Below the pieces are notes generated by a model. That model did no database searches. It saw only the letters and a program-made list of their open reading frames with translations, and was not told the DNA's origin. DNA of 64,000 nt from Candidatus Woesearchaeota archaeon (GTDB lineage Archaea > Nanobdellota > Nanobdellia > Woesearchaeales > JAZDKJ01), in NCBI GenBank assembly GCA_043803105.1, contig JAZDKJ010000006.1, positions 468,671 through 532,670 on the forward strand, in the 5' to 3' direction. Positions within the stretch are counted from its first letter, which is position 1; each line of letters starts with the position of its first letter. The translations under genes were made by a program, and so were the position numbers. Shown here piece after piece: positions 3,695 through 46,618 of the stretch.

Positions 3695-3702
3695 GAATTC
3701 TT

Positions 3703-7015: not shown

Positions 7016-7016
7016 A

Positions 7017-8588: not shown

Positions 8589-8589
8589 A

Positions 8590-9594: not shown

Positions 9595-9633
9595 ACAATT
9601 TGAATAGCTTATGGGATATATTTTTGGTGTCAA

Positions 9634-17569: not shown

Positions 17570-18421
17570 TCATGCAGTTTCTGCTTTGCTTCGTCTGGTT
17601 TCATTGATGATATCCTCATATAGGATTTTATATCTTGTGAGGTTGTCTGTGCTGTCTTCTGACCTGATTGCTTTCTCCAGCACTTTTATGTAGTTGTGCA
17701 GGCTGACATAGATATAGCTTTTTTTGAATGAATGCAGGATTAGTTCCTTTGTGAACCTTTCTAACTCTTCTGTTTTTAGTGCTGCTGCTGTCTCTTTCAG
17801 GCTTTTTCCATCTAAAAGTATGTTTTTTGTTTGCCAATTATATTGGAACACGAGCGTTCTTGTCTGCTCTCTTTCCTTTTTTTCCATTATTTCTATGGTC
17901 GCTTCATGGTATATAGACATTATTTCGCTTATTTTCAGAGGTTTTTTTTGTGGTTTAGTATTTATTGGAAAATTGCTGACTGCTATTCTTGCTGCGGCAG
18001 CAATTACTGGTGTGTTGAGCTTTTTTTCTGTCAATTCTATCATGTGAAGTTTGTCTTCATGCGTTTCCTTGTAACCCCTTTCCTTTATTATGAACAGGTC
18101 AATGTCCTTGTATTCCCTCTTGAATAGGAATGATCCTGCTATGAATGCCTTTGGGTAAGGTTTTAGAATCTCTTTTGCTGTTTTTAGCTTTTCTTCCAGA
18201 ATATTCTCTTGTCCGTAGATGTAGTATTCTCCTTCTTTTGATGTTGTCTCTAATGCCTCTATTTTTTTCTTGATTGAAGTATACAACTGGTATCTCTCGT
18301 TCTTGTCAAGCTGTTCTTTTGCTGCATATTTTCTTATTATGTCCATCTGCTTGCTTGTGAAGATATATTTTGTGAATCTATCCTTGTTTTCTAAGATAAT
18401 TTTTAATATTTTATCATTCAT
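17570..18421 (-). CDS. Nucleotidyltransferase-domain protein with helical C-terminal domain
   Basis: AFIAGSFLFKREYKDIDLFII is a GS...DxD pol-beta-type NTase motif. Confidence 0.6.
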   Translation of the reverse strand: MNDKILKIILENKDRFTKYIFTSKQMDIIRKYAAKEQLDKNERYQLYTSIKKKIEALETTSKEGEYYIYGQENILEEKLKTAKEILKPYPKAFIAGSFLFKREYKDIDLFIIKERGYKETHEDKLHMIELTEKKLNTPVIAAAARIAVSNFPINTKPQKKPLKISEIMSIYHEATIEIMEKKEREQTRTLVFQYNWQTKNILLDGKSLKETAAALKTEELERFTKELILHSFKKSYIYVSLHNYIKVLEKAIRSEDSTDNLTRYKILYEDIINETRRSKAETA

Positions 18422-20007: not shown

Positions 20008-20544
20008 ATGCAATTGTATAATAAACCAAACAATGAAGCCTCGGTCTTAAGGCTCCTGTTTGAAAATCCTACCAGGAAATTCTATATCAGGGAGTTGGCA
20101 AGGCTTCTCAAGCTCAATCCCAATACAGTAATCAACATTACCAAAAGATTAGAAAAACAAAACCTCATTAAGAGAGAAAAAAAACGGCATGTGACCGAAA
20201 TATTGTCTAACATTGAAAACAAAGTATATATTGAAAAAAAAAGGGTTTTCAACCTTGCGAGATTATACGAATCAGGCATTGTGAGCTTCCTCGAGGAAAA
20301 TTTCTCTCCTAAGGCGGTAGTTGTCATCGGAAGCTATAGCAGGGGCGAGGACATTGAGAGAAGTGATGTGGATATAGTTGTGATAACAAATAAGAAAGAA
20401 AAAGACCTTGATTTGAGTCGCTTTGAGAAGTTTCTTTCCAGGAAAATGCATGTACTTTGCGGAAATATTGATGTTTTTTCCGACGAATTCTACACAAATG
20501 TTATTAACGGAATAATTCTTAGTGGTTACTTGGAACAGAAATGA
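20008..20544 (+). CDS. Minimal nucleotidyltransferase (MNT) with N-terminal wHTH
   Basis: VVVIGSYSRGEDIERSDVDIVVI and FYIRELARLLKLNPNTVINITKRLEKQNLI. Same architecture as 1518..2102 and 30538..31107. Confidence 0.75.
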   Translation: MQLYNKPNNEASVLRLLFENPTRKFYIRELARLLKLNPNTVINITKRLEKQNLIKREKKRHVTEILSNIENKVYIEKKRVFNLARLYESGIVSFLEENFSPKAVVVIGSYSRGEDIERSDVDIVVITNKKEKDLDLSRFEKFLSRKMHVLCGNIDVFSDEFYTNVINGIILSGYLEQK

Positions 20545-22399: not shown

Positions 22400-22600
22400 A
22401 TGAAAATAACCGTAATCTTGGAAAAGCAGGAGGAAGGTGGCTTCACTGCCTTTGTCCCTTCCTTGCCTGGCTGCATCTCCGAAGGAGACACAAAGCAAGA
22501 GGCCTTGAAAAACATCAAGGAAGCAATTGAACTTTATCTAGAGCCAGACACAAATGAGTTGGTTGGTTACTGTGGTGAAAAGTTCAAAGTCTCAGTCTGA
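22400..22600 (+). CDS. hicB: HicB-family antitoxin
   Basis: EEGGFTAFVPSLPGCISEGDTKQEALKNIKEAIELYLE. Confidence 0.85.
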   Translation: MKITVILEKQEEGGFTAFVPSLPGCISEGDTKQEALKNIKEAIELYLEPDTNELVGYCGEKFKVSV

Positions 22601-22824
22601 TGAAATTGCCTGTCATTTCTGGAATCGCACTAATAAGCTGTTTGAAGAAGGCAGGCTTTATTGCCACTAGGCAAAAAGGCTCTCACGTAAGGTTGGAGAA
22701 ATTTGATGGAGAAAAGACCTTGAAGATAACTGTGCCATTGCACGCTGAACTGAAGAAAGGCACCCTGACAAGGATAATGAAAGACGCTGGCTTGACAAGG
22801 GAGCAATTTGATGAGCTTAACTGA
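22600..22824 (+). CDS. hicA: HicA-family toxin
   Basis: GFIATRQKGSHVRLEK...ITVPLHAELKKGTLTRIMKDAGLT. Overlaps the hicB stop. Confidence 0.85.
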   Translation: MKLPVISGIALISCLKKAGFIATRQKGSHVRLEKFDGEKTLKITVPLHAELKKGTLTRIMKDAGLTREQFDELN

Positions 22825-23290: not shown

Positions 23291-23926
23291 TTAGAGAATT
23301 CTTTTCAATTCAAGCAAGGAATGGATTACATTCTTTCCCTTGGCCTTTTTTGTCCTGTCCAAAAGAAATGATTTGATGCCGAGCTCAGTTGGCATAACGT
23401 AGTCTAACTGCCTGTCATCTCCGATGTGCACTATCTCGCTAGGTTTTATCTTCAGCTTTTTTAGTATGGCCCTGAACATTTCCTTGTCTTTCCGAGTTCT
23501 ATTGAAGGATGTGGGAGCTGAAAATACATGGTCAAAGTATTTGCTTAATTCTTCTGCCTCAAGTTTTAGCTCAAAGAACTTTTTCTCAGAGTTTGAGGTA
23601 ATAATCAGTTTATACTTCTTCTTCAAATAATCAAGCGTTGGGATAGTGTCATCAAAGACAAATATGTGCTTTTTCATGTCAGAAAGAAGCTTCTGCCAAT
23701 TCCCCAATTTTAGCCTCTTGAACCAGTATGTTATGCTTGTCCATTGGCTTACCCTTTCTATATCCAATGCCCTATAATATTGGGAATAAACGAATTGTTT
23801 GGCTTCAGCAACGCCAATCTTGTGTTGCTTTGCATAAAGCTTAGGCACCTCTTCGTGCCAAATGAGCTTGTCAAACTTGTCATTGACAAGCGTTGCGTCC
23901 AGGTCAAACGAAACATACTTTATCAT
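23291..23926 (-). CDS. HAD-superfamily hydrolase
   Basis: Motif I FDLDATLV, motif II ITSNS, motif IV HIGDD. Confidence 0.8.
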   Translation of the reverse strand: MIKYVSFDLDATLVNDKFDKLIWHEEVPKLYAKQHKIGVAEAKQFVYSQYYRALDIERVSQWTSITYWFKRLKLGNWQKLLSDMKKHIFVFDDTIPTLDYLKKKYKLIITSNSEKKFFELKLEAEELSKYFDHVFSAPTSFNRTRKDKEMFRAILKKLKIKPSEIVHIGDDRQLDYVMPTELGIKSFLLDRTKKAKGKNVIHSLLELKRIL

Positions 23927-24005
23927 GACTGCTGGAGTAAATCAGTCCTTTATATTTCTTGCCAATCCCAAAAGCTTTTTAAGGTGCATTGCTATTTTTA
24001 TGCCA

Positions 24006-24428
24006 ATGGCAAACATTGAAAACGGTAAAATTCTTGGAACAGGCCTTAATTCAAACAAGGTACTCTGCAACAAGGTAGTTGACCAGTTGTACAAACTAAG
24101 TGCTGGCATCTCCTTAAATGAAGAAATGCTAAACGATCCTACAAGGGAGCGCATTGAATCCTTGAGAAAGCTTGGTTTCTATACAGTGCAAGAGGGAAGC
24201 ATACATCTAAGCGAGGAGTATCATTCTGCAACCTCATGCCTGGACTATGCAAATAGGCTAATGCGCGTTGGTCTCACTCCATATATTCTGGAACGAAGGT
24301 ATTCCAGAACAGGTTCACAATTTTGGATAGGTATAACCGAAACTGTTCTTGAGTCAATTATTGCTGGAGAAATCCAACCTGCCTGCAGGCTTGAGCCAAA
24401 GGTTGCAGCCCTCCATCCAGAACCATAA
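24006..24428 (+). CDS. Hypothetical protein
   Basis: ATG 24006 lies ~30 nt downstream of the TATA-like CTTTTTAAGG. No motif recognised. Confidence 0.4.
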   Translation: MANIENGKILGTGLNSNKVLCNKVVDQLYKLSAGISLNEEMLNDPTRERIESLRKLGFYTVQEGSIHLSEEYHSATSCLDYANRLMRVGLTPYILERRYSRTGSQFWIGITETVLESIIAGEIQPACRLEPKVAALHPEP

Positions 24429-24462
24429 TCAATTTAAAGGTTTAGCTGATTTTTTCTGCTGC

Positions 24463-24876
24463 ATGAGATACGAGCGAGGCAGAGATGGTGTTCCTCAAAT
24501 TGTTTGGGAGAAACAGGACGAGGACCTGTACTTTGCTGTTGAACGTGGAGATGTCTTCGCAGACCTTTGCTACAGTCTTATGCAGTTAAAGCTTGTTCAC
24601 GACTACATAAAAAAACAACAGACTGTTCACGTCGCTTCAGCCAGGCAATTAAAGGCAGCGCTCCTAAATTTTGATTTCTATTATGAGGAATTGAAAGTCA
24701 CTCACCGACGGTCAAGCTCACTTCGGATGCCTGAGGTGACCATTGATTCCGTGCTCGAGGCTTTTAATGAAAAAAACACTAATTATGTGATGGATGTTGC
24801 AGCATGCGTTCGCTCAGAGCAGCGCAAGGCTATGGCAAGGCTTTACAATCTTGATTCTGCTTCATATATAGTCTAG
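24463..24876 (+). CDS. Hypothetical protein
   Basis: ATG 24463 lies ~22 nt downstream of CAATTTAAAGG. No motif recognised. Confidence 0.4.
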   Translation: MRYERGRDGVPQIVWEKQDEDLYFAVERGDVFADLCYSLMQLKLVHDYIKKQQTVHVASARQLKAALLNFDFYYEELKVTHRRSSSLRMPEVTIDSVLEAFNEKNTNYVMDVAACVRSEQRKAMARLYNLDSASYIV

Positions 24877-25313
24877 AATTTGTAAAGGTTAAGCCCTATC
24901 TCTTTTGAAAATTCCCTCTCAAGATTCCCGTCTACCACATCAATAACTGCCTCGAAAGTTGCGCTAACTGTTGCAGAATTTAGGTGTCCGCTGATTGATT
25001 TGTTATCTTTGTCTCCGATGTTGGCGTGCAGGTGTAGGTAGACCTCTCCCTTCATTGTCGTTATGTTGCCTGTGAGCGGGCATATCTCATAGTCGCCAGT
25101 GTATTCATTTGAATGGTATTTCTTTGTCTGCGTGTCAAACAAGCCGAGCGTAACCTTGCCTGCTGCCCCTATCCCTGTTACTGTGCCGAGCCTTATGCTG
25201 TTGTCCTGGCAGAACTTTTTCAATACCTGAACTATTTCCTCGCCCTTATCTATCCTTAGCATGAACCTGTCCCTAAATTGCCTGTAGTCCATCGTTGACA
25301 AATAAGAACTCAA
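24873..25313 (-). CDS. PPC (DUF296) domain protein
   Basis: VTGIGAAGKVTLGLFD...YEICPLTGNIT...VYLHLHANIG...ISGHLNSATVSATFEAVI matches the PPC-domain pattern. Confidence 0.7.
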   Translation of the reverse strand: MSSYLSTMDYRQFRDRFMLRIDKGEEIVQVLKKFCQDNSIRLGTVTGIGAAGKVTLGLFDTQTKKYHSNEYTGDYEICPLTGNITTMKGEVYLHLHANIGDKDNKSISGHLNSATVSATFEAVIDVVDGNLEREFSKEIGLNLYKF

Positions 25314-25317
25314 CTAT

Positions 25318-25722
25318 TTAAATGCTTCTAGGTTGTGCTGCCAGCAAACTCTTGAATGCATCAATCACTTTTTGTTCGAATTCTGAACTCCTTTTGTCTA
25401 TGAGCCCGTTTCCTCCTACTTCAAGCATCAATGCATATGTATCACGATGGAAGTTTGTTACAAGGTATGCTGGCGTTCTGTCTCCTGCTTCCCTTAAGTC
25501 TCTGATGACCTCAAGCCCTGAGTGAATTGGCATCTGAAAATCCAGAAAGATGCCATTGTATCCATTCCTGTTTGCTTCTATCCAGGCTTCCCCTCCATCC
25601 TTAACATAATCTAGTATTACCTCGGCTCCCTCTTCAACTGCAGCTTTTGAAATTGCGGCAAGAGTTCTTTTGCCTTCTTCAAAATTGTCATCCGCTATAA
25701 GAATTCTCAGCACTTTCTCCAT
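25318..25722 (-). CDS. Stand-alone response-regulator receiver (CheY-like REC) domain protein
   Basis: ILIADDN acidic pair, phospho-acceptor context IFLDFQMP, YLVTN and LIDKR conserved positions. No output domain. Confidence 0.8.
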   Translation of the reverse strand: MEKVLRILIADDNFEEGKRTLAAISKAAVEEGAEVILDYVKDGGEAWIEANRNGYNGIFLDFQMPIHSGLEVIRDLREAGDRTPAYLVTNFHRDTYALMLEVGGNGLIDKRSSEFEQKVIDAFKSLLAAQPRSI

Positions 25723-25759
25723 AGGCAGGTGTGCCTTTTATTTCTTATAAAGCTTTTGC

Positions 25760-26293
25760 CTACCTTATATGGCCTTTTGGAATCCGCAGCTTTTGGTTGA
25801 CAAATATCTTGTCTCCTGCAAGCCTGTTGTATTCCTTAAGCTTTCTCCAATTCCGCTTGTCCTTTGTATATCTCTCGGAAATCGTCTGGAGTGTGTCCCC
25901 TTTTTGCACCCTGTATTCCATGTCCTGCGCTGCATTGACATTCCGTGTCTCTGTTCTTGTTAAATATAGTAGCCCACATGTTCCTAATCCAAATGCGGTG
26001 GCAATGGCTACAGCCTTCCTTACCATGCCCTGCCACACCGCAGGCTCTTTGTGCTCTTCCCGAGGTGCATAGAGCCTCTCCTCACCAAGATTCTTCATCA
26101 TGCAGTACATCCTGAGTGTTGACCTTAGCTGTTCCATCTCTCTGCTCTTATCTGCCGGATATTCCCTCGCAAGCTGGTGTATGCCCCTTATTCTTTCAAG
26201 CATTTCTTCGTTTAACCCTGTCCTGTAGGTCTGCACAAGGTAATCAACGCCTTCCTTCACTTTGTCTGTAAGCTCTTCATGCATCATCATCAC
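25760..26293 (-). CDS. Membrane-anchored LysM-domain protein
   Basis: Cytoplasmic N-domain, TM helix AVAIATAFGLGTCGLLYL, then C-terminal LysM YRVQKGDTLQTISERYTKDKRNWRKLKEYNRLAGDKIFVNQKLRIP. Confidence 0.75.
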   Translation of the reverse strand: MMMMHEELTDKVKEGVDYLVQTYRTGLNEEMLERIRGIHQLAREYPADKSREMEQLRSTLRMYCMMKNLGEERLYAPREEHKEPAVWQGMVRKAVAIATAFGLGTCGLLYLTRTETRNVNAAQDMEYRVQKGDTLQTISERYTKDKRNWRKLKEYNRLAGDKIFVNQKLRIPKGHIR

Positions 26294-26820
26294 CCGATTA
26301 CTTTTTCGCAGTATTTTCTTGCTGTTTCATCCCTGATCTGTTTCCTCACAGTTGTCTTGTACAAATCATACAGGTTTACAAGACTTCCGTACTTTAGCAC
26401 AATACCTATTGCTTCGTTTACAGCAAAGACTGCAATGCTTTGCTTATCTCTGGTCTTGAAAAAATACCTGGCCCAGAATCCTGCTTTCCAAACTACCTCC
26501 ACTGCCTTGATTGTGTAAAAAATGCTCATCGCGTTCAGGCACCTAATTCCTGTTTCTATAGGCGCAAGCGCATACTCCAGATTGTCGATTCTGGCTGCAG
26601 TGTCGTAGAGCGCTTTGTATTCCTTGGCTGTCTCCGCATAGAGGCCGAGAAGCCAATCCTGCTTGAGCCTTGGTTCCGTGCTCACTGAATTGTGTATTGC
26701 ATCGTTTTCCCTGATTATTTTCTCGATTTCTGATTCTTGATCTATTGCTTTAGGCAAGAAAGCTTGCTCAATCATTTCCAGGCGTCTTTCAGCCATGCTA
26801 AACAAAACCGCTAATCCCAT
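26290..26820 (-). CDS. Hypothetical protein (operon member)
   Basis: Overlaps both neighbours. No motif recognised. Confidence 0.45.
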   Translation of the reverse strand: MGLAVLFSMAERRLEMIEQAFLPKAIDQESEIEKIIRENDAIHNSVSTEPRLKQDWLLGLYAETAKEYKALYDTAARIDNLEYALAPIETGIRCLNAMSIFYTIKAVEVVWKAGFWARYFFKTRDKQSIAVFAVNEAIGIVLKYGSLVNLYDLYKTTVRKQIRDETARKYCEKVIG

Positions 26821-27235
26821 TTTCTTCTATCCTCTTTTGTCTTTCATAGCAATCCCTTACCTCTTTGTCAAGTGTTTGCTCTATCTGTCTCGTTCTCTGA
26901 TACTGTTCCCCTTCGCATGCAGCCAAATTGATTAAAACAGAATTTGGCAGTCTGATTCCTGTCATTCCCTTTGCAGAAGCTATTACAGCCTCTATTGTTA
27001 GTGCAATCTTGTTGCTGACCTCAACCAAATCATTTCTTATGATTGCATTTTCAAGTCCTTTGAGCTGCTGCTTCAAGTGCTGCCTGTACAACGGGCTTAA
27101 GGATTTGGCATAGTCACCGGTTAGCTCTCTGTATCTCTTGTATTGATTCTCAAAGTCTTTGCCTTTTAGCATCCCGGTGACTAGCTTGCTGTAGGCTTTA
27201 ACGCAGCCAATGCATTTTTTTCTTATCTCATCCAT
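26798..27235 (-). CDS. Hypothetical helical protein (operon member)
   Basis: Overlaps both neighbours. No motif recognised. Confidence 0.45.
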   Translation of the reverse strand: MDEIRKKCIGCVKAYSKLVTGMLKGKDFENQYKRYRELTGDYAKSLSPLYRQHLKQQLKGLENAIIRNDLVEVSNKIALTIEAVIASAKGMTGIRLPNSVLINLAACEGEQYQRTRQIEQTLDKEVRDCYERQKRIEENGISGFV

Positions 27236-28346
27236 TTTGAACTAGTTTGTACGCTATTGCCTTGCTGTCAAGCTGCTTCTGTTTTGTAAATGCCTTCTGC
27301 ACTTCTGAATCAATTGACTTCATTGTCTGGCTTATCTGCTCCTCAAATGGTCTGATGTCCACAATGTCTGTGGGCGGGTTCTCATAAAAAACCTGGGCTG
27401 TGTTCAGGAGCCCTCCAAGGTATCTTCGGCTTACCTGCATCAAGCCAACCAATTGCTGCCCACTCTCTAGTGATTGTGCCATGTCCTCGCATACCTCATG
27501 CACATTTCTTGTTGACACATTGAGCTGCCTTACCATTGTGCAGAAATTGCGCATATAGCTTACTATCTGCTCAGCAAGGTATTTTGGTATGTCAAGACAT
27601 TTTCTGTATACTGTGAGCGCATTCTTCTGGTTTATTGATAATGCCACATTTGTGTCATGCTCCTTTAGCTGGTATTTTGTCTTTATCACCAGGTTCTCAA
27701 GGTCTTCCTTGTTGTTGAGGGTCTTTGCAAAGCCAGTTTCAGTGATTTTCATTGCCTCAAGCTTCTTGACCAGGTTTGCCAGCACTGACTCATACTTTCC
27801 CAGAAGCTTGTACTTGGTGTCAAAGCCGGTTTTTTCCTCAACAAGCATGGCAACATAATCCTTCTCTAGCTTTCTCATGACAGAGGTTGCCTTGTCTATA
27901 TTGGAGATAGTCACACCGGTTTCCTTTGCCAGCTCTTCTATTTTGGTTGCAGATTGCTCTATCATGTTGTAAAGGTCTTGCGGTGTTCCCTCATTCAATG
28001 GCACATCTGCCTCAACTTTCTCAAGAAGTGTCTTCTCCACCTTCACTGTCTTAAGCGGCAATTTTAGCACGCTTCGCACAAGGTTGCTAACTGATTGTGC
28101 TGGCTGTTCAGTCACTACCTTTCTTTGGCGTTCCTGTTCCTCTTTCTTTCTGTACTCTCTTTGCAGATACTCTTTTAGGCTGCTTTGCAGGAATTCCAGT
28201 TGTGACCTCATTTTCTGGTACTTATTCTTGTCTGCTATAACTTCAACCTCTGGCAAGGCTGTGCTCTGCCTTTGCCTTGTTTCAGTTGTCTGCACTGCCT
28301 CTTCAAGAAGTTCCTCGGCGAGCTTGTTTACGTCTGCGTTTCCCAT
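27228..28346 (-). CDS. Coiled-coil protein, 372 aa (operon member)
   Basis: Long heptad-like charged segments. No enzymatic motif recognised. Confidence 0.5.
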   Translation of the reverse strand: MGNADVNKLAEELLEEAVQTTETRQRQSTALPEVEVIADKNKYQKMRSQLEFLQSSLKEYLQREYRKKEEQERQRKVVTEQPAQSVSNLVRSVLKLPLKTVKVEKTLLEKVEADVPLNEGTPQDLYNMIEQSATKIEELAKETGVTISNIDKATSVMRKLEKDYVAMLVEEKTGFDTKYKLLGKYESVLANLVKKLEAMKITETGFAKTLNNKEDLENLVIKTKYQLKEHDTNVALSINQKNALTVYRKCLDIPKYLAEQIVSYMRNFCTMVRQLNVSTRNVHEVCEDMAQSLESGQQLVGLMQVSRRYLGGLLNTAQVFYENPPTDIVDIRPFEEQISQTMKSIDSEVQKAFTKQKQLDSKAIAYKLVQNG

Positions 28347-28594
28347 CTTATCACCCTGCCATTATACAGGACGAGATGCTTATTTAGTGTTATTAAGAAA
28401 AAAGCGCAATTGTTTCCAAGAATCCGAAAAATTAATTGGATAGTTCGAAATTTTGCTTGTTGTTTGGGGTTCCATCCCGCAGACGGCACATCAAACTTAG
28501 GGTTGGTTGCAATAGCAATCTTCTCAGGCACATTCCCTTCTCGAAACATGTCTAACAAGCCAGCTGTCGCTAACTGCACATTTTTGTTCATCAT
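28328..28594 (-). CDS. Small hypothetical protein, first gene of the operon
   Basis: ATG 28594 is preceded by the Shine-Dalgarno-like TGAGGTGAT. The 3' end overlaps the next gene by 19 nt. Confidence 0.4.
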   Translation of the reverse strand: MMNKNVQLATAGLLDMFREGNVPEKIAIATNPKFDVPSAGWNPKQQAKFRTIQLIFRILGNNCAFFLITLNKHLVLYNGRVIRWETQT

Positions 28595-28662
28595 AGAAAT
28601 CACCTCAATGATTTTTTCTTTTCAATCAAAAAAAGAAAAAATATCTACCTAATAGAAATTGG

Positions 28663-29907
28663 TTACTGTGACAGCTTCTGGTTGATTGCTTTAAGATTAA
28701 ACATGATAATCTGCTGGAGCACCAAACCGAGCTTTTTGTCGTCCCTTTTCTTTGCCCCTTTTGTGGAAAATACATACTCCTCAAGCAAGCCCAAAGGTAT
28801 GTCTAGAATGGGGATATCATTCATAAGCAAGAAATGAAATGTGATTAGCCTTGTAGTTCTGCTGTTTCCGTCAAAAAACGGATGTATATGCTGGAATTCA
28901 TTGTGTAGGTAGGCTGCGAATTCAAGAATCTCACGAAGAGAATGTTTTTTCTTCTTATTGAACTCATTGTATTTTTGCAGCAGTTCTGCAATCATTCCCT
29001 CAATCTCGTTATAATGTGCTACCTTGTAATCCGCATTCCCCCTGATAATAACCTTGTTATCCCTAAATCTGCCAGCAATCTCTTTCTTATGCTGCATTGC
29101 AATAAAGTGGTAATTCAGTATATTTTCCTTTGTAATGACAGGATCATCCTGGATATTCTCTATCATTTTCAAGAAGGCTTTTTGGTAATTTTCAACCTCA
29201 TGGATAGATTCCATGCTTAAGTTTTCAGGAACTATTTTATCCCTAAGAAGTTTAAATGTCTGTGCTAATGTGATTGGGTTGCCCTCGATGCTTAAGCTAT
29301 GGTGAATGAATTTAATCTGGTACGTTTCTGTCAATTCTTGGTATTTTCTTTCATTTGAGACTCTAAGCTTCTTGAACCTAGAAAGCTCTGATTGAATTTC
29401 ATCAAAATAATCATCTTCTTTTTTCTTAGTTACCATGGGATGATGCCCGTAGTACGCAATAAGATCACCAAGAAATGAATTATATGGAACTACAGCTTTG
29501 AATGGCTTTCTTGAAAGCACCAACATAAAACCATTTTTCTCAAGAATGCCAGAAACTTTTGAGACGGTTTTTGCATTCAGGCCAAGGTCTTTCATTCCGA
29601 ATAATTTTTTTAAGAACGCTTTGCTCAGGTATTTTGCTACAGACTCATCAAACAACTCATTATAATTAACGCCATTCTTTATGCAGTATTTCAGCATATC
29701 ATAAAGATGCTGGTGCTTAGCATTCATAGTTGCCTGGTACCCATATTTATTTTTTTCAATGAGCTTCATCCCAACAAGAGTGTCAAGTATTTTTCGAATC
29801 CTCTGGTATTCTGTTGTTTTCCTCTTAAAGGCTTTGACAATATCTATGCTGCCTTTTGGATTGCCGCTCTTGTATAATTCAACAAAAACATCATATTTTG
29901 TTACCAT
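28663..29907 (-). CDS. Fic-domain protein with N-terminal wHTH
   Basis: Fic motif HPFFDGNSRTTRL. N-terminal wHTH (IDIVKAFKRKTTEYQRIRKILDTLVGMKLIEK). ATG 29907 is preceded by AGGTGG. Confidence 0.85.
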   Translation of the reverse strand: MVTKYDVFVELYKSGNPKGSIDIVKAFKRKTTEYQRIRKILDTLVGMKLIEKNKYGYQATMNAKHQHLYDMLKYCIKNGVNYNELFDESVAKYLSKAFLKKLFGMKDLGLNAKTVSKVSGILEKNGFMLVLSRKPFKAVVPYNSFLGDLIAYYGHHPMVTKKKEDDYFDEIQSELSRFKKLRVSNERKYQELTETYQIKFIHHSLSIEGNPITLAQTFKLLRDKIVPENLSMESIHEVENYQKAFLKMIENIQDDPVITKENILNYHFIAMQHKKEIAGRFRDNKVIIRGNADYKVAHYNEIEGMIAELLQKYNEFNKKKKHSLREILEFAAYLHNEFQHIHPFFDGNSRTTRLITFHFLLMNDIPILDIPLGLLEEYVFSTKGAKKRDDKKLGLVLQQIIMFNLKAINQKLSQ

Positions 29908-30061
29908 ATGAACCACCTAATTTGTACCGCTTAATAAATCTTTCTATTTGGTACAAGAAATACAAAAAATGTGTACTTTTTGTACTAAATAACATATTTA
30001 ATAAATAAGCGTATAATGCACAAAAAGCAAAGAAAAATTGTAAAAATCATGCTAAATAGCA

Positions 30062-30541
30062 TCAAATATCAAGTTGTAATTGGAGCTTCCTCTCCACGAA
30101 TGAGAACAATGATTTGATATAAATTTCAAATTTGAGCTTATAGCTTGTCCAAATTTCTTTAGTGACGCCTTGCCCGCGGTATTGAATACCGTTTCTGAGT
30201 AGCCTCATCGTTTCCAAAGTTTCCCAGTCAAATTCAAAATCTGGATGCTTGACACAAAGATGAGCACCAATGCATTTATGATCCCCGGGCTTTATTTGAT
30301 CAAGGATTGCTATCACATGAATAAGCATCCTCATTACATCATAGCGATTAGAGAACAGCTTTGGGTAGTTTGTCGTATTTTTCTCTCTTGTTTTTTCAAA
30401 TTCCAGAGCTTCTACCCAATCAGCTTTTGCCTGCTTGTAAAGCGATTCGGCCAGCTCCTTGTCAATTGTTTCAGCTGAAATGATTTTTCCGCTTGCTTGA
30501 CACTCATTGTAAGCATCATCCAATTCTTCGATTTTTTTCAT
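30062..30541 (-). CDS. HEPN-domain protein
   Basis: 159 aa helical protein with ETMRLLRNGIQYRG. Overlaps the upstream MNT gene by 4 nt. Confidence 0.65.
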   Translation of the reverse strand: MKKIEELDDAYNECQASGKIISAETIDKELAESLYKQAKADWVEALEFEKTREKNTTNYPKLFSNRYDVMRMLIHVIAILDQIKPGDHKCIGAHLCVKHPDFEFDWETLETMRLLRNGIQYRGQGVTKEIWTSYKLKFEIYIKSLFSFVERKLQLQLDI

Positions 30542-31107
30542 GATGCAGCCACCTCCATAACTTCATAGATGTCCCCTTTGACAACATATCCTCGAAGGAC
30601 ATTCTTCAATAATCCTGATTTGACTTCTTCCATCTCTTTTTTTGTATGGAACGTGTGAACCTGAACTTCTCTGCTCTGACCTTGGAATCCTAATCCTTTC
30701 CAATACCTTCCAAACTTGAAATTCTCACTTTCTCCGTAGACGAACACATCAACATCGCTGTCCGTGGTCCAATCTGTTCTGACATAGCTCCCGAAGATGA
30801 TGATTGTCTTTGCATTTTTTAATCTTTGCAATTCTTGAATAAGACCAGTTCCATAAAGCTTTTGCAGGGCATATAATTTTTTTTTGGCTCTATATTCGGG
30901 TTCCTCATAATTGCCAATGAAATAAGGCATCTTATCTTTTGGTTTTATTCGCTTTATGATTTTATCCTTCTGAAACCGCCTCAGCCATTTACCTGCTATA
31001 TTGATGCTGACACCTGAAGTTTCCACTATGTTAGAGAAATGCCATTGCTTAGTGGGCTCATTCATAAACAGCTCCAACACCCTTTCTTCCTTTGATAAAC
31101 TCGGCAT
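30538..31107 (-). CDS. Minimal nucleotidyltransferase (MNT) with N-terminal wHTH
   Basis: IIIFGSYVRTDWTTDSDVDVFVY. Confidence 0.8.
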   Translation of the reverse strand: MPSLSKEERVLELFMNEPTKQWHFSNIVETSGVSINIAGKWLRRFQKDKIIKRIKPKDKMPYFIGNYEEPEYRAKKKLYALQKLYGTGLIQELQRLKNAKTIIIFGSYVRTDWTTDSDVDVFVYGESENFKFGRYWKGLGFQGQSREVQVHTFHTKKEMEEVKSGLLKNVLRGYVVKGDIYEVMEVAAS

Positions 31108-31987: not shown

Positions 31988-32500
31988 ATGGAGGTTATTA
32001 AGGAAGGGGCAAAATGCCTAATCAAAGGCAATAAGCAGGCAACAATGGAGCTTGACACTTGTTGCGGTATTGTTATTTACGGCAAAGGCGCTGCTGGTGA
32101 AAAGCTTGTTGGAGCTGCGCACTGTGTTGTACCTTCTTATTTTGAGCATTTTCTTCAATTGGAGTGCTATCTTTCAGGTATCATACTGCCTGAGGATTTT
32201 CTCACTACCCCTAACAAGGCTGTTTCCGCCTTGCTGTCATTGTTGAAAAGGAAGAATCCTTGTGCTTTGACAGCGATAATTGCTGGCTGCCAGTTAGGAA
32301 AATATGGCTATGACAATGAGCAAGAGGCTCGAAATGCTCTGGCTTCCGAGCATATCCCTGTCTTAAACTCCCGCTTAACCGGTCTTTCGTACACGATAGG
32401 CCTTGTTGTTTCTGTTGATTTTTTAGTTGCACAATTCCTAGAGCCTTCTGACAAATCAGTGGTTTATCCAGCAAGAAAAGTTCCTCTTGTATATAATTGA
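31988..32500 (+). CDS. CheD-like (Cys-His deamidase fold) protein
   Basis: LDTCCGIVIYGKGAAGEKLVGAAHCVVP, AIIAGCQ and EARNAL...LTG line up with CheD blocks recalled from memory (LGSC..V....kvGgmAHvmLP, akiaGGa, iG.rN...TGG). Confidence 0.45.
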   Translation: MEVIKEGAKCLIKGNKQATMELDTCCGIVIYGKGAAGEKLVGAAHCVVPSYFEHFLQLECYLSGIILPEDFLTTPNKAVSALLSLLKRKNPCALTAIIAGCQLGKYGYDNEQEARNALASEHIPVLNSRLTGLSYTIGLVVSVDFLVAQFLEPSDKSVVYPARKVPLVYN

Positions 32501-32534: not shown

Positions 32535-33251
32535 TTAAGCCTTTGGTTGCCCTATGATTACTTCGTCTGTCAAATGATGAAATTCCGTTGACAAAGTAGC
32601 TAGGTATTTTGGGTCAACTTGTGCTGGTTCTTTTATGTAAAGGTTCAGAACAAGGATTTGTCCCTTCATTCCGGCTTCTACGGTTAATTTGGAATCAAGA
32701 GCGGTAGTAAGCCCTACTGGTACATTTCTACGGACTCTGCTTTGTAATATGTCTGTAAGCCGCTCCAAAGTTTGGGCTCCAGAAGCAGCTTCTAAAGGAA
32801 GATCGAGTACAGTTTGAAATCTACCAAGATAAGTCTTATCCTTTCGGCAAAGATAGTTGCATGATGGAAATTTTCCCATCAAATCTATCATTGCTGAGTG
32901 TGAACTGCAGAAATCAAATACAGATTGCCAGTTTCCATAATGGAAATGCCATGCAAATTGATATGGCCTCATATCATCTAAAGTCATCTGTGTGACAGTT
33001 TCCCTGATTATGTTGCCCTCTTCTGGCTTGATTGTTTTTTGTGAGATTTCTAATCCAGAGAGTTCGTACACCACATTGCCAAGCACTGGGCCTTCCTTGC
33101 CCAAAATCGTGGTTTCAAGCTCAAATCTCTCTATTGGTTGAAGCTGGCCGAATTTCTTCCTGACATCTCTGAAGACTTCCTGGGAATCTGCCCAGACCTT
33201 TGCTATAAGATCTGCGGCCGGAGTGTAAAGTGTGGCTGTGCTTTTATCCAT
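32535..33251 (-). CDS. Hypothetical protein
   Basis: 238 aa. TATA-like TTTAAATAA lies upstream. No motif recognised. Confidence 0.45.
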   Translation of the reverse strand: MDKSTATLYTPAADLIAKVWADSQEVFRDVRKKFGQLQPIERFELETTILGKEGPVLGNVVYELSGLEISQKTIKPEEGNIIRETVTQMTLDDMRPYQFAWHFHYGNWQSVFDFCSSHSAMIDLMGKFPSCNYLCRKDKTYLGRFQTVLDLPLEAASGAQTLERLTDILQSRVRRNVPVGLTTALDSKLTVEAGMKGQILVLNLYIKEPAQVDPKYLATLSTEFHHLTDEVIIGQPKA

Positions 33252-33510: not shown

Positions 33511-34014
33511 ATGAAAAATCGTGCAGTTGGCTTCCTTGTTGTTGGTATTGCTATTCTAATAGCAGTGATAATTTTTGCCTTCAACCGCGCTCTGAATAAG
33601 ATTGTGAACACCTCGTGTTCTCACGGCCCAACCTGCCCTATGTGGGGCACTATTGATTTCCAGACCTATGTAAGCTTGGGTGTGATGGGTTTTGTTTTGA
33701 TTGTAGGTTTGTACCTTATCTTCTTTGGCAAGGAAGAGCGGCTTGTGACAAAGATAATCAAGGTCAAGGAGCAGATCCAGCCGAGAAAGGTCAGCAGGCC
33801 GCATTATCAGAAAGTCTTGGCAGACCTGCCTCATAACGAAAAAAGCGTGATGGGCTTGGTCATTGATTCTGAAGGCTCAATCATGCAGTCAGACCTTGTG
33901 GAAAAGAGCAAGTTGTCAAAGGTGAACGTTACAAGAGTCCTTGACAGGCTTGAGGGCCGTGGATTGATCGAGCGCAAGCGCCGCGGCATGACCAATGTGG
34001 TGATATTGAAGTGA
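33511..34014 (+). CDS. Membrane-anchored winged-HTH regulator with an extracytoplasmic Cys/His/Met loop
   Basis: Order is TM1, loop NTSCSHGPTCPMWG, TM2, then a cytoplasmic MarR-like wHTH (IMQSDLVEKSKLSKVNVTRVLDRLEGRGLIERKRRG). First gene of the copper cluster. Confidence 0.65.
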   Translation: MKNRAVGFLVVGIAILIAVIIFAFNRALNKIVNTSCSHGPTCPMWGTIDFQTYVSLGVMGFVLIVGLYLIFFGKEERLVTKIIKVKEQIQPRKVSRPHYQKVLADLPHNEKSVMGLVIDSEGSIMQSDLVEKSKLSKVNVTRVLDRLEGRGLIERKRRGMTNVVILK

Positions 34015-34517
34015 ACATGTTTTTCTTTGCCTTCCTTGGACTTTTGTTTTATGCCTCAATTATGCTAGTGAAGTCATATCTTCATCCCAAAACAACCCTG
34101 CTTATGATGTTGTTGCACTTGCTCTCAGCCTTAATTGCCATAGTCTCTTACGCAATTTTCGCTTTTGACGAAATGATCATCTCCTTCTGGCTGCTCATAG
34201 GTCTTACCCTTGTGGCTCTTGGCCTCTTGATCAATGTCTTTGCTTTTAAGGCTCTTCGGTCTCAGGCATTTGACCCGGGAAAATCTCTCATTACTTCAGG
34301 CATTTACGGCCAGGTCAGAAATCCGATGTACTCAGGGATCATGCTTGCTGCTTATGGTTCGTTTCTTTTTTCCTTTTCTGCCTATGCCTTGTTATATTGT
34401 GTTCTTGTGACCTTCCTCTTGTACTTGGTTGTTTTTGGCGAAGAAGCTTACCTCGCCAAGACCTTTGGCAAGAAGTTTATTTCTTACCAGGTCAAGGTCC
34501 CAAGATTCTTGCCTTGA
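34011..34517 (+). CDS. Isoprenylcysteine carboxyl methyltransferase (ICMT/PEMT)-family membrane protein
   Basis: GIYGQVRNPMYSGIML motif within 4-5 TM helices. Start is GTG 34011 or ATG 34017. Confidence 0.65.
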   Translation: MNMFFFAFLGLLFYASIMLVKSYLHPKTTLLMMLLHLLSALIAIVSYAIFAFDEMIISFWLLIGLTLVALGLLINVFAFKALRSQAFDPGKSLITSGIYGQVRNPMYSGIMLAAYGSFLFSFSAYALLYCVLVTFLLYLVVFGEEAYLAKTFGKKFISYQVKVPRFLP

Positions 34518-34781: not shown

Positions 34782-36239
34782 ATGAGCGATAACGATGAAC
34801 AAAAGCCTGAGCATTTTGTCACAAGGCGCTTTAGTGCCTCTGGCACAACCTGCCAGAACTGTGCTGAGCTCATCAAGCGCCAGGCTTTAAAGGTTGACGG
34901 TGTTAAATCCGCACATTTTGATTATCCAAGCGAGACAGGCTCTGTTACCTATGATCCCTCAAAGACAGACTTTGATGCTATTCTTTACAAGATTGAGGAA
35001 AAGGGTTACACCTGTTTCATACTTGATGAAAAGTCTTCGCAAAGCAAACAGTCTCTTGGTTGGATTTTCGGCATTCTGGGCTTGCTTGTCGTTGGATATT
35101 TTGCCATAGGGCTCATTCACAATGTGCAGATTCCCCAAATCACCCAGAACATGGGCTATGGGCTCTTGTTTGTGGTAGGCCTTCTTACTGGCTTTCATTG
35201 TATTGCTATGTGCGGTGGCTTTGTTGTTGGATATACTGCAAAGGATACACAGCAAGGTAAGAGCTCACATCTTTCCCATCTTTGGTATGGTACTGGAAAG
35301 GTTATCTCCTACACAATCATTGGAGCTGCATTTGGGCTCTTGGGGTCAATTATCGCTTTTACTCCAACAATGAGAGGCATTGCAGGAATTGTTGCTGGAA
35401 TTTTCCTAGTGATTTTTGGCTTAAGGATGCTTAACGTCTTTCCTGTGCTTCGGAAGTTTCAGTTTAAGGCTCCTGGTTTTATTTCCAGGATTACTGGCGG
35501 CAAGAGCAACAGCCCGCTGGTTGTGGGCTTGCTTAACGGCCTGATGATTGCCTGCGGTCCTTTGCAGGCAATATACATTATGGCAGCAGGCACAGGCAGC
35601 CTTATTGAGGGAGCAAAATTGTTGTTCATCTTTGCGCTTGGAACTTTGCCTGTCATGCTTGGATTCGGCTACTTCACCAGTTTTGTGTCAGGCAAGTTGA
35701 CAGCCAAGATTCTAAAGGCTTCGGGGGCAGTGGTTATTTTGCTTGGGCTGATGATGCTCAACAATGGTCTCGTCCTTACAGGCGCAGGCTATGATTTCAA
35801 GAGTATCGTAGGAACAGACACCCCTGCAATACAGTCAGTGAGCGCCGCTCCCTTAAGCCAAGGTTTTCAGGAAATCCATATGACTGTCGATGCCAATGGC
35901 TTTACCCCAAGCAGTTTTGTGCTCCAGAAGGGTGTGCCTGTGAAGTGGATTATTGACGGCAAGCAGATTACATCGTGCAACAAGGCTATTCAGGTGCCAG
36001 CCTATGGCTTGCAGTTTGATATAAAGCCTGGTTTGCAGACTATTGAATTCACTCCAACTGATGTAGGCACTATTAGGTGGAGCTGCTGGATGGGAATGAT
36101 TCACGGCACTTTCATTGTAAAGGATCAGGTGACTGCAGCAGACCAAGCAGCTGTTGCCCAGGCTGCTACAGCGCCTTCCGGTGCAGGAACCTGCAACATG
36201 GGTTCTGGTGGAGGCTGCGGCTGCGGCATGATGAATTAA
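34782..36239 (+). CDS. HMA - DsbD_2/TauE-like permease - cupredoxin-like fusion protein
   Basis: N-terminal HMA (SGTTCQNCAELIKRQA). Six or more TM helices including HCIAMCGGFV. C-terminal beta domain with ITSCNKAI...WSCWMGMIHGTF. Cys/Gly tail GSGGGCGCGMMN. Confidence 0.65.
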   Translation: MSDNDEQKPEHFVTRRFSASGTTCQNCAELIKRQALKVDGVKSAHFDYPSETGSVTYDPSKTDFDAILYKIEEKGYTCFILDEKSSQSKQSLGWIFGILGLLVVGYFAIGLIHNVQIPQITQNMGYGLLFVVGLLTGFHCIAMCGGFVVGYTAKDTQQGKSSHLSHLWYGTGKVISYTIIGAAFGLLGSIIAFTPTMRGIAGIVAGIFLVIFGLRMLNVFPVLRKFQFKAPGFISRITGGKSNSPLVVGLLNGLMIACGPLQAIYIMAAGTGSLIEGAKLLFIFALGTLPVMLGFGYFTSFVSGKLTAKILKASGAVVILLGLMMLNNGLVLTGAGYDFKSIVGTDTPAIQSVSAAPLSQGFQEIHMTVDANGFTPSSFVLQKGVPVKWIIDGKQITSCNKAIQVPAYGLQFDIKPGLQTIEFTPTDVGTIRWSCWMGMIHGTFIVKDQVTAADQAAVAQAATAPSGAGTCNMGSGGGCGCGMMN

Positions 36240-36277
36240 AGCAAATATTTAAATTCGTCAATCTAATATACAATAAT

Positions 36278-38467
36278 ATGCAAAAAACAGAATTCCAGGT
36301 ATCGGGTATGCATTGCGCCAGCTGCGCTGCTATCATAGACAGGGCGCTGCAAAAGACTCCTGGAGTCCTGAAATCAAACGTCAATTACGCTAACGCTAAT
36401 GCACTGGTTGTTTTTGACGAAAGTAAAGTGGATGAGCACGCTCTGATCCAGACCATAAAAAGGGCTGGATATGGCGCAGAAACTGTTGGTGCCAACACCG
36501 CAGTTGCGCAGGAAGAGCGGCAAAGATATGAATATCAGCTTACCAAGGCATATTTCTATTTTGGTTTGCTTTTTGCGATTCCCGCATTCATCATCGGCAT
36601 GGTCTTGATGTGGTTTGGCATTGACATCCCTTACAAGGGATTTATCCTTTTGCTTTTGGCCACTCCAGTCCAGTTTGTTGTTGGCTGGCAGTTTTACAGG
36701 GGTGCTTTTCATGCCCTCAGAAACAAGACAGCAAATATGGACACTCTTATCGCTGTCGGCACGAGCGCAGCCTATTTCTACAGCCTTTATGCTGTGCTTT
36801 TCGAACCAACACTTGAGCAGTATTTTGAGATTTCAGCGATCCTCATAACCCTTGTGATGATGGGAAAGCTTCTTGAGGCCCGGGCAAAAGGAAAGACCTC
36901 TGAGGCAATTAAGAAGCTTATGAGCATCGCCCCAAAAACAGCCAGGATAATTCGCAATGGCAAGGAGTCTGTTGTCGATATTGAGGAAGTCAGGCTTGCA
37001 GACATTATTGTCATCAAGCCCGGAGACCGGATTCCCGTGGATGGCAAGCTTGTTGATGGCAATTCCTCTGTTGACGAGAGCATGGTAACTGGTGAAAGCA
37101 TCCCTGTTGAGAAGAGAAAGGGTGATTTCGTCTACGCTGGGACAATAAACAAGAATGGCTCTTTTCGGTTTTCTGCTACAAAGGTGGGCAAGGACACGAC
37201 TTTGTCGAGGATTATCCAACTAATTAGGGAAGCCCAGGGCACCAAGGCGCCTATACAGCGTTTTGCTGACATGATTTCAGCATATTTCGTTCCGATTGTT
37301 ATTGGTCTTGCATTGCTGAACTTTGGTGTCTGGTTGCTCTTGATGCACAGCAGTATTTCATTCGCTCTCATCACTTCTGTTGCAGTCCTTGTGATAGCAT
37401 GTCCGTGTGCACTTGGCCTTGCCACTCCAACTGCTATAATGGTTGGGGTTGGAAAGGGCGCCCAGAATGGAATTCTTATTCGTGGTGGAGAAGCTTTAGA
37501 GACAGCCCAGAAGTTAAAATACATTGTGCTTGACAAGACCGGTGCAATAACCAAAGGCACCCCAGAGCTGACAGACATAACTCCCTTTTCAAATAATTCT
37601 CCTGATTATGTGCTGTCCCTGGCAGCATCGCTTGAGAAGGATTCTGAGCATCCATTGGCTGATGCAATAGTCAAGGCTGCAGCACAGAAAAAGCTTCGCA
37701 CCTCTGCCTTAAAAGGGTTTAAGGCTACTCCAGGCATGGGTGTTTCTGGCAAGGTGCAGGGAAAGCAGGTCTATCTTGGCAACCAAAAGCTTATGCATAA
37801 TTTTGGCATCCCTACAGCATCTGTAGACAGGCAGGCAGTAGCGCTTGAGCAAGAAGGCAAGACTGTGATGTTTGTTGCTGTTGGCAAGAAAATCATTGGG
37901 CTTGTTGCAGTGGCTGATTCTGTCAAGGATAATTCTGCGAAGGCGATAACTGCCTTAAAGAGCCTAGGTTTGCAGGTATACATGATTACTGGCGACAATG
38001 AAAGAACTGCGAAAGCTGTTGCCTCCAGGGTTGGTATAACCAATGTCTTTGCTGGCGTGCTTCCTGAAGACAAGGTGAACTATGTTAAAGAGCTGCAGAA
38101 AAAAGGCAAGGTGGCCATGGTGGGCGACGGAATAAATGATGCTCCTGCCCTTGCACAGGCTGACATCGGAATAGCCATGGGCTCAGGCACTGATGTTGCT
38201 ATGGAGACAGGAAACATTGTTCTTATGAAAAACGATCTGCTTGATGTGCCTAGGGCCATTCGGTTAAGCAAGCTTACTATGTCAAAGATAAGGCAGAACA
38301 TGTTTTGGGCCTTGATTTACAATACGCTCGGAATTCCTGTTGCTGCAGGTTTGCTGTATCCCTTCACAGGCTGGCTTCTATCTCCTGTGATTGCCGGTGC
38401 CGCAATGGCATTAAGCTCAGTCAGCGTCGTTACAAACAGCCTTCTGCTCAAAGCTAAGAGGATTTGA
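36278..38467 (+). CDS. copA: Copper-translocating P1B-type ATPase
   Basis: N-terminal HMA GMHCASCAAII, TGES, CPC (ACPCALGLATP), phosphorylation site LDKTGAITKG, SEHPLA and GDGINDAPAL. ATG 36278 lies downstream of the TATA-like ATATTTAAAT. The track's 36077 start is an upstream read-through. Confidence 0.9.
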   Translation: MQKTEFQVSGMHCASCAAIIDRALQKTPGVLKSNVNYANANALVVFDESKVDEHALIQTIKRAGYGAETVGANTAVAQEERQRYEYQLTKAYFYFGLLFAIPAFIIGMVLMWFGIDIPYKGFILLLLATPVQFVVGWQFYRGAFHALRNKTANMDTLIAVGTSAAYFYSLYAVLFEPTLEQYFEISAILITLVMMGKLLEARAKGKTSEAIKKLMSIAPKTARIIRNGKESVVDIEEVRLADIIVIKPGDRIPVDGKLVDGNSSVDESMVTGESIPVEKRKGDFVYAGTINKNGSFRFSATKVGKDTTLSRIIQLIREAQGTKAPIQRFADMISAYFVPIVIGLALLNFGVWLLLMHSSISFALITSVAVLVIACPCALGLATPTAIMVGVGKGAQNGILIRGGEALETAQKLKYIVLDKTGAITKGTPELTDITPFSNNSPDYVLSLAASLEKDSEHPLADAIVKAAAQKKLRTSALKGFKATPGMGVSGKVQGKQVYLGNQKLMHNFGIPTASVDRQAVALEQEGKTVMFVAVGKKIIGLVAVADSVKDNSAKAITALKSLGLQVYMITGDNERTAKAVASRVGITNVFAGVLPEDKVNYVKELQKKGKVAMVGDGINDAPALAQADIGIAMGSGTDVAMETGNIVLMKNDLLDVPRAIRLSKLTMSKIRQNMFWALIYNTLGIPVAAGLLYPFTGWLLSPVIAGAAMALSSVSVVTNSLLLKAKRI

Positions 38468-46378: not shown

Positions 46379-46618
46379 TCACCTTTGTTGATTGTTAAAT
46401 TCCAGTACTTCGTTGTTAGCCTTCAAGTTCTGCCTGACAATAAAGTCCAAAAGCCTCTTCCGAGTCACATTACATTTACAACAAACGTGAAAGAAGATGA
46501 TTCCCTGACTTGACTCTTCCAGCCGGTAGGTCATGCCTTCCTGCTTCGGACAAGAAGGTTTGCCACAAAAAACACAGTAACAAAAGTTTTGAGAGCAAGA
46601 CATCAGACAACACCCCAC
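46379..46618 (-). CDS. Cys-rich zinc-finger-like protein
   Basis: CSQNFCYCVFCGKPSCP...HVCCKCNV. Confidence 0.45.
   Translation of the reverse strand: MGCCLMSCSQNFCYCVFCGKPSCPKQEGMTYRLEESSQGIIFFHVCCKCNVTRKRLLDFIVRQNLKANNEVLEFNNQQR

Follow-up and report, generated by a model that had tools for sequence, protein, structure and literature searches.

A conserved module in a probably composite locus

We describe a conserved four-gene module from a Candidatus Woesearchaeota archaeon (GTDB lineage Archaea; Nanobdellota; Nanobdellia; Woesearchaeales; JAZDKJ01). It lies in a 64,000-nucleotide (nt) stretch of contig JAZDKJ010000006.1 (assembly GCA_043803105.1, forward-strand positions 468,671 to 532,670), hereafter the window, in which all positions are counted from the first letter. 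An original prediction on this DNA had joined seven consecutive minus-strand open reading frames (ORFs) at 24873–28594 into one translationally coupled operon, in which a LysM membrane protein was linked to a phospho-relay. We find that the locus is very probably composite, comprising a module of four genes (g2–g5), two unrelated genes (g6 and g7) and one doubtful ORF (g1). Our best overall explanation, to which we assign a probability of roughly 0.55, is that g2–g5 of this composite locus encode an anchored complex, that the CheY-like receiver (REC) and PPC genes beside them are unrelated to it, and that g1 is most likely spurious.

The module is defined by its conservation. An exhaustive HMMER search of 1.8 billion cluster representatives returned five relatives of g2 (31–45% identity, E = 1e-46 to 1e-86), and the surrounding genes were compared on the contigs L087, L088 (856 kb), L092 and P0126. 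If the products of g2, g3, g4 and g5 are called proteins A, B, C and D, the gene order A-B-C-D recurs in L088 and L092, and A-B-C in L087; in P0126, the two genes after A overlap and are of the expected size. The proteins of these relatives have 380–406 (A), 178–210 (B), 198 (C) and 387–416 (D, with a transmembrane segment and LysM) amino acids (aa), and the B and C genes overlap by 23–26 nt in the window, L087, L088 and L092 alike. By orthology in BLAST and tblastn searches and by gene order, g2–g5 thus form a real conserved module. None of the related module loci contains a counterpart of REC, PPC or g1. The gene neighborhood is therefore conserved for g2–g5 and not for g1, g6 and g7, nor for the combination of LysM, REC and PPC on which the original prediction had turned.

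All seven predicted ORFs are present and are numbered g1 to g7 in the order of transcription. The tight spacing that had been claimed is also borne out: g1 and g2 overlap by 19 nt, g2 and g3 by 8 nt, g3 and g4 by 23 nt, and g4 and g5 by 4 nt. The gap between g5 and g6 is 37 nt, and that between g6 and g7 is 4 nt if g7 begins at TTG 25313, or 25 nt if ATG 25292 is its start. The features of the locus are as follows.

28628–28641, minus strand: oligo-T tract (T6 + T7) directly after the Fic stop codon, probable terminator (sequence, list of T-runs)
28328–28594, minus strand: g1, ORF of 88 aa, a doubtful gene outside the conserved module (coding score, no family match, no counterpart)
28379–28432, minus strand: conserved non-coding block upstream of the A gene, inside the g1 ORF (four-genome DNA alignment)
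27228–28346, minus strand: g2, protein A, 372 aa, predicted cytoplasmic long helical bundle, first gene of the module (ORF, relatives, AlphaFold2)
26798–27235, minus strand: g3, protein B, 145 aa, helical, with an N-terminal Cys pair (positional orthologues, tblastn)
26290–26820, minus strand: g4, protein C, 176 aa, helical throughout and containing a hydrophobic hairpin (orthologues, AlphaFold2)
25760–26293, minus strand: g5, protein D, 177 aa, with a helical domain at the N-terminus, then a transmembrane segment and LysM (Pfam, hydropathy, orthologue alignment)
25318–25722, minus strand: g6, stand-alone CheY-like receiver (PF00072)
24873–25292, minus strand: g7, PPC/DUF296 protein, 139 aa from the ATG (PF03479, homologue lengths)
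24770–24776, minus strand: oligo-T tract (T7), the first downstream of g7 and the probable end of a read-through transcript (list of T-runs)

The translationally coupled operon proper is g2–g5 only, because g6 and g7 have TATA boxes of their own and g1 is weakly coding, unconserved and placed over a conserved non-coding block. Nor do the seven genes appear to share a single promoter: motif evidence places TATA boxes internally, at g6 and g7, and a promoter block for g2 inside g1. What stands of the proposed seven-gene functional unit is its central part, g2–g5, whose genes are conserved, co-oriented and overlapping.

The module appears to be lineage-restricted, and has so far been found only in Woesearchaeota/Nanoarchaeia-type DPANN archaea. 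The L092 proteins, which are labeled “Candidatus Woesearchaeota archaeon”, are the sole named relatives of the module proteins. Word-indexed protein searches with g2 and g5 each returned only the query itself, an exact look-up of g2 gave no record, and a scan of GTDB genomes with g2 gave no relative. A metagenome scan with a four-sequence alignment recovered only another copy of the L088 species, and scans of viral contigs with A and C found no relatives. A malic-enzyme scan, whose best matches (63–64% identity) were spread over Methanoregula, Woesearchaeota and Clostridia, showed the module at 0 of 80 loci. Among GTDB representatives, the genome of the window has no close relative.

In both L088 and L092, the module is set among core metabolic genes. 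After D come a gene for a further protein, E (537–642 aa), which contains a transmembrane segment and a LysM-like stretch, and a GalT-like gene preceded by a TATA box of its own. Protein E (L088 13592–15520; L092 4026–5639) begins with a conserved domain of about 300 aa, followed by the transmembrane segment and the LysM-like stretch, which carries an insertion. Its C-terminal domain is strongly conserved, ends in NMKISKxSxYxVLD and has the look of a helix-turn-helix. A role for E as a membrane-bound helix-turn-helix regulator is not supported: there is no Pfam match, and a second transmembrane segment is present only in L088 and missing in L092.

The module promoter and the doubtful upstream ORF

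The coding score of g1 is 0.056 bits/codon, compared with 0.17–0.29 for g2–g7 and −0.09 to −0.13 for shadow ORFs. No match to g1 was found in Pfam, NCBIfam, PHROGs or PADLOC. Runs of T5/T6 lie within its 3' half, and this same half aligns with the non-coding DNA that precedes the A gene in L087, L088 and L092. Across these three contigs and the window, the block at 28379–28432 has 26 invariant columns, against 8.3 ± 2.9 in shuffled alignments (0 of 200 reach 26). When only the window sequence is shuffled, 17.4 ± 3.1 columns are invariant, and again 0 of 200 shuffles reach 26. The block ends in a TATA-like sequence with the appearance of a factor B recognition element (BRE), TAAATAAG (28379–28386), 33–40 nt before the ATG of g2. 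Thus, the block is probably the promoter of the module, together with a possible operator, and g1 is most likely a spurious ORF that runs over it. A candidate origin of g1 as a duplicated N-terminus of protein A was rejected (hhalign probability 0.04).

Oligo-T tracts act as transcription terminators in Archaea, and the tract at 28628–28641 probably separates the Fic gene from the module in this way. A perfect A/T-only inverted repeat (ATTTTTTCTTTT ... AAAAGAAAAAAT, with an 8-nt loop) lies at 28611–28642 on the minus strand, between the Fic stop and the g1 start, and overlaps the tract.

The receiver and PPC genes

Both g6 and g7 are, by score, ordinary members of known protein families. The g6 product matches the REC family of CheY-like single-domain regulators (PF00072; 40.2 bits versus a 30.2 cut-off) and is typical in its active site as well: D11, D12, D60, T88 and K108 align with CheY D12, D13, D57, T87 and K109, so that all five phospho-chemistry residues are kept. 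The g7 product is a PPC/DUF296 protein (PF03479; 109 bits versus a cut-off of 25) with 363 homologues in Archaea and Bacteria that are 54–68% identical. The predicted start of g7 is ATG 25292, not TTG 25313, because these homologues are mostly 139 aa long. Together with the LysM match of g5 (below), these Pfam scores uphold the three domain assignments of the original prediction.

In this genome, leaderless transcription seems to be the norm. About 15 other genes of the window are preceded by a TTTAWAW-type TATA box that starts 29–32 nt upstream of the start codon; a TATA box at −29 to −32 is a signature of archaeal leaderless transcription and, together with the relatives labeled Woesearchaeota or Nanoarchaeia, marks the organism as archaeal. 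Motifs of this type occur in the window at 0.00053 per base per strand; at that position, about 0.003 would be expected per gene by chance. We find such boxes at −29 for g6 (TTTATAAG, 25744–25751) and at −30 for g7 (TTTAAATA, 25315–25322). Because each gene has a box at a position where one is rare by chance, this motif evidence suggests that g6 and g7 are transcription units of their own.

Elsewhere in the window, boxes like TTTAAATA that are not accompanied by a Shine-Dalgarno sequence precede, for example, the genes at 17570–18421, 20008–20544, 23291–23926, 31988–32500 and 32535–33251, and likewise those at 33511–34014, 56985–57356, 57415–58524, 60531–61082 and 61258–62235. A minority of genes have GGAGG-like motifs instead (g1, g2, 30062–30541 and 34782–36239). 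A scan for bacterial-type promoters and terminators gave results at chance level, its model being the wrong one for an archaeon.

The neighborhoods of PPC in five other genomes contain neither REC nor LysM; the neighbors there are Hef, primase, Dus, ribosomal proteins, IF-2B and others. The genome with the closest named PPC neighborhood clusters with “Candidatus Nanoarchaeia”. Co-occurrence of LysM, REC and PPC is thus absent both from these five neighborhoods and from the relatives of the module. In addition, no histidine kinase (HisKA/HATPase_c or a kinase model) was found among 34 ORFs scanned outside g1–g7, which comprise most of those of at least 120 aa and include every one of at least 220 aa that was judged a real gene; here the original prediction was correct. 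What sets g6 and g7 apart from the module genes is that they have promoters of their own and no linkage to A–D in the other genomes examined. Both are probably unrelated neighbors with leaderless promoters, PPC being a widespread stand-alone gene. The coupling of LysM to a phospho-relay, the more striking part of the original prediction, does not hold.

The closest PPC homologue (68% identity) is on contig L005, at 1312–1737, where a divergently oriented Fic homologue lies next to it at 3–1166. This Fic protein is 25.7% identical to that of the window over 382 aa (E = 3e-12). Possibly, Fic and PPC were already neighbors before the module and REC came to lie between them in the window by insertion.

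Proteins A, B and C

Proteins A, B and C have no match in Pfam, NCBIfam, PHROGs or PADLOC, and profile searches of the Protein Data Bank (PDB) with them gave nothing below E = 0.01. Hydropathy reveals no transmembrane segment in any of the three, which suggests that they are cytoplasmic. The earlier statement that the helical proteins have no assignable function thus remains valid for A, B and C: no curated family is matched, and neither the profile searches with all three nor the structure searches with A and C gave a significant hit.

The AlphaFold2 model of A, built from a six-sequence alignment, has a mean predicted local distance difference test score (pLDDT) of 70.6 and a predicted template modeling score (pTM) of 0.55. 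It comprises four long helices (residues 122–366) and a charged hairpin of low confidence. A Foldseek search of the PDB with this model, of pLDDT only 70.6, gave 0 hits at E ≤ 0.001 (best E = 0.025), and the matches listed are generic helical bundles (AhlC, ClyA, XaxA, MCP, SMC and BAR) with template modeling scores (TM-scores) of 0.4 or less on the query. The best TM-score among them is that of AhlC (E = 0.035; 0.36–0.40 on the query, 0.47–0.53 on the target). In the BFVD database, A finds three TelA-annotated phage proteins of 362–387 aa, at values that are not significant (E = 0.005–0.04, TM-score about 0.3). The Pfam TelA model (PF05816) matches none of six members of family A, even at E ≤ 10.

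Protein B has orthologues in the same position in L087, L088 and L092; their similarity to it is weak (25% identity, tblastn E = 3e-4), and the alignment retains its N-terminal Cys pair. Protein C is better conserved (31–41% identity to its orthologues, E = 1e-23 to 1e-30) and carries a conserved C-terminal FAxNE...YGS motif and a hydrophobic helical hairpin. Its AlphaFold2 model, from a three-sequence alignment, has eight helices (pLDDT 74.9, pTM 0.70), and a fold search with it gave no match (best E = 1.1).

The C-termini of A (27237–27335) and B (26801–26902) share a similar helix of 33 residues (hhalign E = 2e-4, probability 47%) with the pattern [LI]-[DE]-x-x-[LV]-[EQ]-...-Q-[KQ]-x-L-[DE]. 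This helix may be a shared docking motif. Apart from this short motif, the idea that A, B and C are mutual paralogues was rejected.

Protein D and its possible ligand

The LysM domain of protein D is canonical (PF01476; 47.1 bits versus a 20.9 cut-off, model positions 1–43 of 43) and occupies residues 127–172 (about 25778–25915). It is preceded by a single transmembrane segment, a hydrophobic stretch at residues 93–112 (about 25958–26017). D aligns end to end with a 387-aa Woesearchaeota LysM protein (22% identity over 227 aa, E = 1.7e-7), and the LysM domains of its orthologues score 32.1 and 26.2 bits. In an alignment judged by eye, Lys and Arg are more numerous before the transmembrane segment than after it in all three D orthologues. 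LysM domains act outside the cytoplasm. From these two features together, D probably has its N-terminus inside and its C-terminus outside.

In its small bitopic layout, with one transmembrane segment followed by a single extracytoplasmic LysM, D resembles YneA, the SOS-induced suppressor of cell division in Bacillus subtilis. The YneA model (NF010723) matches residues 103–172 (E = 1.5e-7) at 31.3 bits, below its 60-bit cut-off. D differs from YneA in its additional N-terminal domain, which is conserved and about 90 aa long, and in that the orthologues of D have about three LysM repeats; moreover, D is archaeal, and its gene shares an operon with those of three helical proteins.

The premise that Archaea make no ligand for LysM was too absolute. 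The window itself contains a gene cluster for surface-glycan synthesis (2720–12065). Its products are a glycosyltransferase of family 4 (PF00953) and four transferases of the GT4/GT1 type, along with a Wzx-type flippase (9634–11052) and an exosortase/EpsH-like membrane protein (11049–12065). We take the PF00953 enzyme to be of the MraY/WecA/AglH type, so that the glycan is possibly primed with N-acetylglucosamine-1-phosphate.

Contact of LysM with the surface of a partner, as originally suggested, fits published proposals for Woesearchaeota. Large murein-transglycosylase surface proteins of Woesearchaeota and Pacearchaeota have been proposed to bind bacterial walls (PMC8204110, PMC9723730), and archaeal proteins that target peptidoglycan exist (PMC12352652). 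Compared by description, the module is similar to these murein lytic-transglycosylase proteins (fam00969 in PMC8204110; GH23 in PMC9723730) in lineage, presumed peptidoglycan ligand and proposed contact with bacteria. It differs from them in that its proteins are small and without a catalytic domain, and LysM is binding-only.

Proposed role of the module and alternative explanations

We propose that A, B and C would be made in fixed proportions, as suggested by their overlapping reading frames, and would assemble into a helical scaffold that docks on the cytoplasmic N-terminal domain of D and, in relatives, on the cytoplasmic domain of E as well. The outward-facing LysM of D would bind an N-acetylglucosamine-type glycan, and a scaffold at the inner face of the membrane would thereby be tied to the outside. 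This glycan may belong either to the wall of a bacterium, as partner or prey, or to the glycan coat of the archaeon itself. The outcome would be an envelope-spanning anchoring or attachment complex. The odds that A, B, C and D form a membrane-anchored complex are about even; we infer complex formation, topology and ligand from sequence and models. It is somewhat unlikely that the LysM ligand is specifically the bacterial wall. The most specific version, in which A-B-C-D(-E) is a DPANN-specific, envelope-spanning apparatus that grips the peptidoglycan of a bacterial host or prey while the helical proteins organize the contact from inside, is unlikely.

Several points weigh against our overall explanation. 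The A–D family is known from about five genomes only. In the window copy, protein E is missing and there is a single LysM, versus about three in the orthologues; because of these two differences, it may be a reduced or relocated copy. A good Shine-Dalgarno sequence (GAGGTG) lies 6 nt before the ATG of g1, which could be a real small upstream ORF. No T-run of at least 5 lies between the stop codon of g5 and the T7 at 24770–24776; since this first oligo-T tract comes only after g7, read-through and co-transcription of g5 into REC and PPC are possible. Among public sequencing runs, none was found that contains this stretch. Finally, the complex, the topology of D and the LysM ligand are all deduced from sequence.

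Four alternatives to the anchored complex were weighed. The originally proposed arrangement, in which all seven genes are one operon and LysM senses a partner glycan and signals via the orphan receiver to PPC, draws on the common strand, on gaps of 37 nt or less, on the lack of an oligo-T terminator from g5 to the end of g7, and on the intact phospho-chemistry of REC. We regard it as very improbable, given that REC and PPC are missing from all related loci, that TATA boxes lie at −29/−30 for g6 and g7, that the 34 flanking ORFs include no histidine kinase, and that PPC stands alone elsewhere. Could the module instead be a weapon? A, B and C might constitute an alpha-helical pore-forming toxin of the ClyA/AhlC/XaxA type that would be released, or would insert into the membrane of a partner, with LysM gripping the bacterial wall in a “vampiristic” manner. 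Reports from Woesearchaeota include genes for pore-forming toxins as well as murein hydrolases (PMC9723730), C has its hydrophobic hairpin, and A, which lists AhlC, ClyA and XaxA among its Foldseek matches, resembles that family as an elongated helical bundle with a hairpin “head” from a multi-gene operon of helical proteins. However, the matches are insignificant (0 fold hits at E ≤ 0.001; E ≥ 0.035 for this family), generic bundles (SMC, MCP, BAR and TelA) fit equally well, there is no sequence similarity, and A has a charged hairpin that is modeled with low confidence. The component sizes (372/145/176 aa) are also unlike those of known two- and three-part toxins, and the module shows neither a secretion signal, as judged without a signal-peptide predictor, nor a gene for export. 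A toxin is thus distinctly improbable.

A housekeeping function in the envelope or in division is quite unlikely. Under such a function, A would be a TelA-like, membrane-associated stress scaffold and D a YneA-like protein acting on the cell's own N-acetylglucosamine glycan. A shares with TelA (PF05816) a similar length (about 370–400 aa), an all-helical bundle and the three BFVD matches, and D matches the YneA model over its transmembrane segment and LysM. The metabolic setting of the L088 and L092 copies, and the glycan cluster of the window with its PF00953 enzyme and flippase, also suit this explanation. Yet the structural likeness to TelA is insignificant (TM-scores about 0.3) and family A has no Pfam TelA match; the match to YneA reaches only 31 of the required 60 bits and is carried by LysM; and genes needed for division would be expected in more than about five genomes. 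It is extremely improbable that the module is a defense or abortive-infection system. The thought arises from its neighbors in the window, namely Fic (PADLOC SoFic/PDC-S04), MNT/HEPN (PDC-M05) and HicAB, within a defense and toxin-antitoxin island. Only the neighboring Fic and MNT/HEPN match PADLOC-DB 2.0, whereas g1–g7 match none of its components. In relatives, the flanks are metabolic and not defensive; the module encodes neither a nuclease or NTPase nor any other domain typical of effectors or sensors, and no viral relatives were found.

By exclusion, the module would be of a new kind: three of its four conserved proteins have no relative in curated libraries, and the combination fits no described system. 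Clusters of this sort, confined to one lineage and without a known function, abound in DPANN genomes (PMC8204110). How DPANN archaea recognize and hold their partners is an open question, and the module provides a testable candidate for that interface, with a LysM ectodomain that could be used as a probe for the ligand or host. If it were an apparatus for gripping the peptidoglycan of bacteria, it would supply direct genetic evidence for a life on bacteria in some Woesearchaeota, and a handle for finding their hosts.

Other features of the window

Upstream of the module on the same strand, the Fic gene (28663–29916) and an MNT/HEPN-like pair (30062–31107) are present, as had been noted. They belong to a region rich in toxin-antitoxin and defense genes (20008–20544, 22400–22824 and 28663–31107), which holds a winged-helix-turn-helix nucleotidyltransferase, a HicB/HicA-like pair (recognized from translations), the Fic protein with an N-terminal winged helix, and the MNT/HEPN-like pair. 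Convergent with g7 are two plus-strand ORFs (23862–24428 and 24349–24876) of moderate coding score (0.12–0.14 bits/codon) without a family match. Scans of the window for tRNAs and Rfam families gave no match.

Further along, 33511–34517 encodes a MarR-like regulator and a PEMT-like methyltransferase, and 34782–38467 a 485-aa protein with an N-terminal heavy-metal-associated domain, whose gene overlaps that of a CopA-type copper P-type ATPase (E = 1e-213). The segment 44980–63899 contains a tyrosine recombinase (51291–52586; XerA-like, E = 1e-10) and an 802-aa Prim-Pol (46603–49011) among many ORFs without a family match, and may be an integrated mobile element or provirus.

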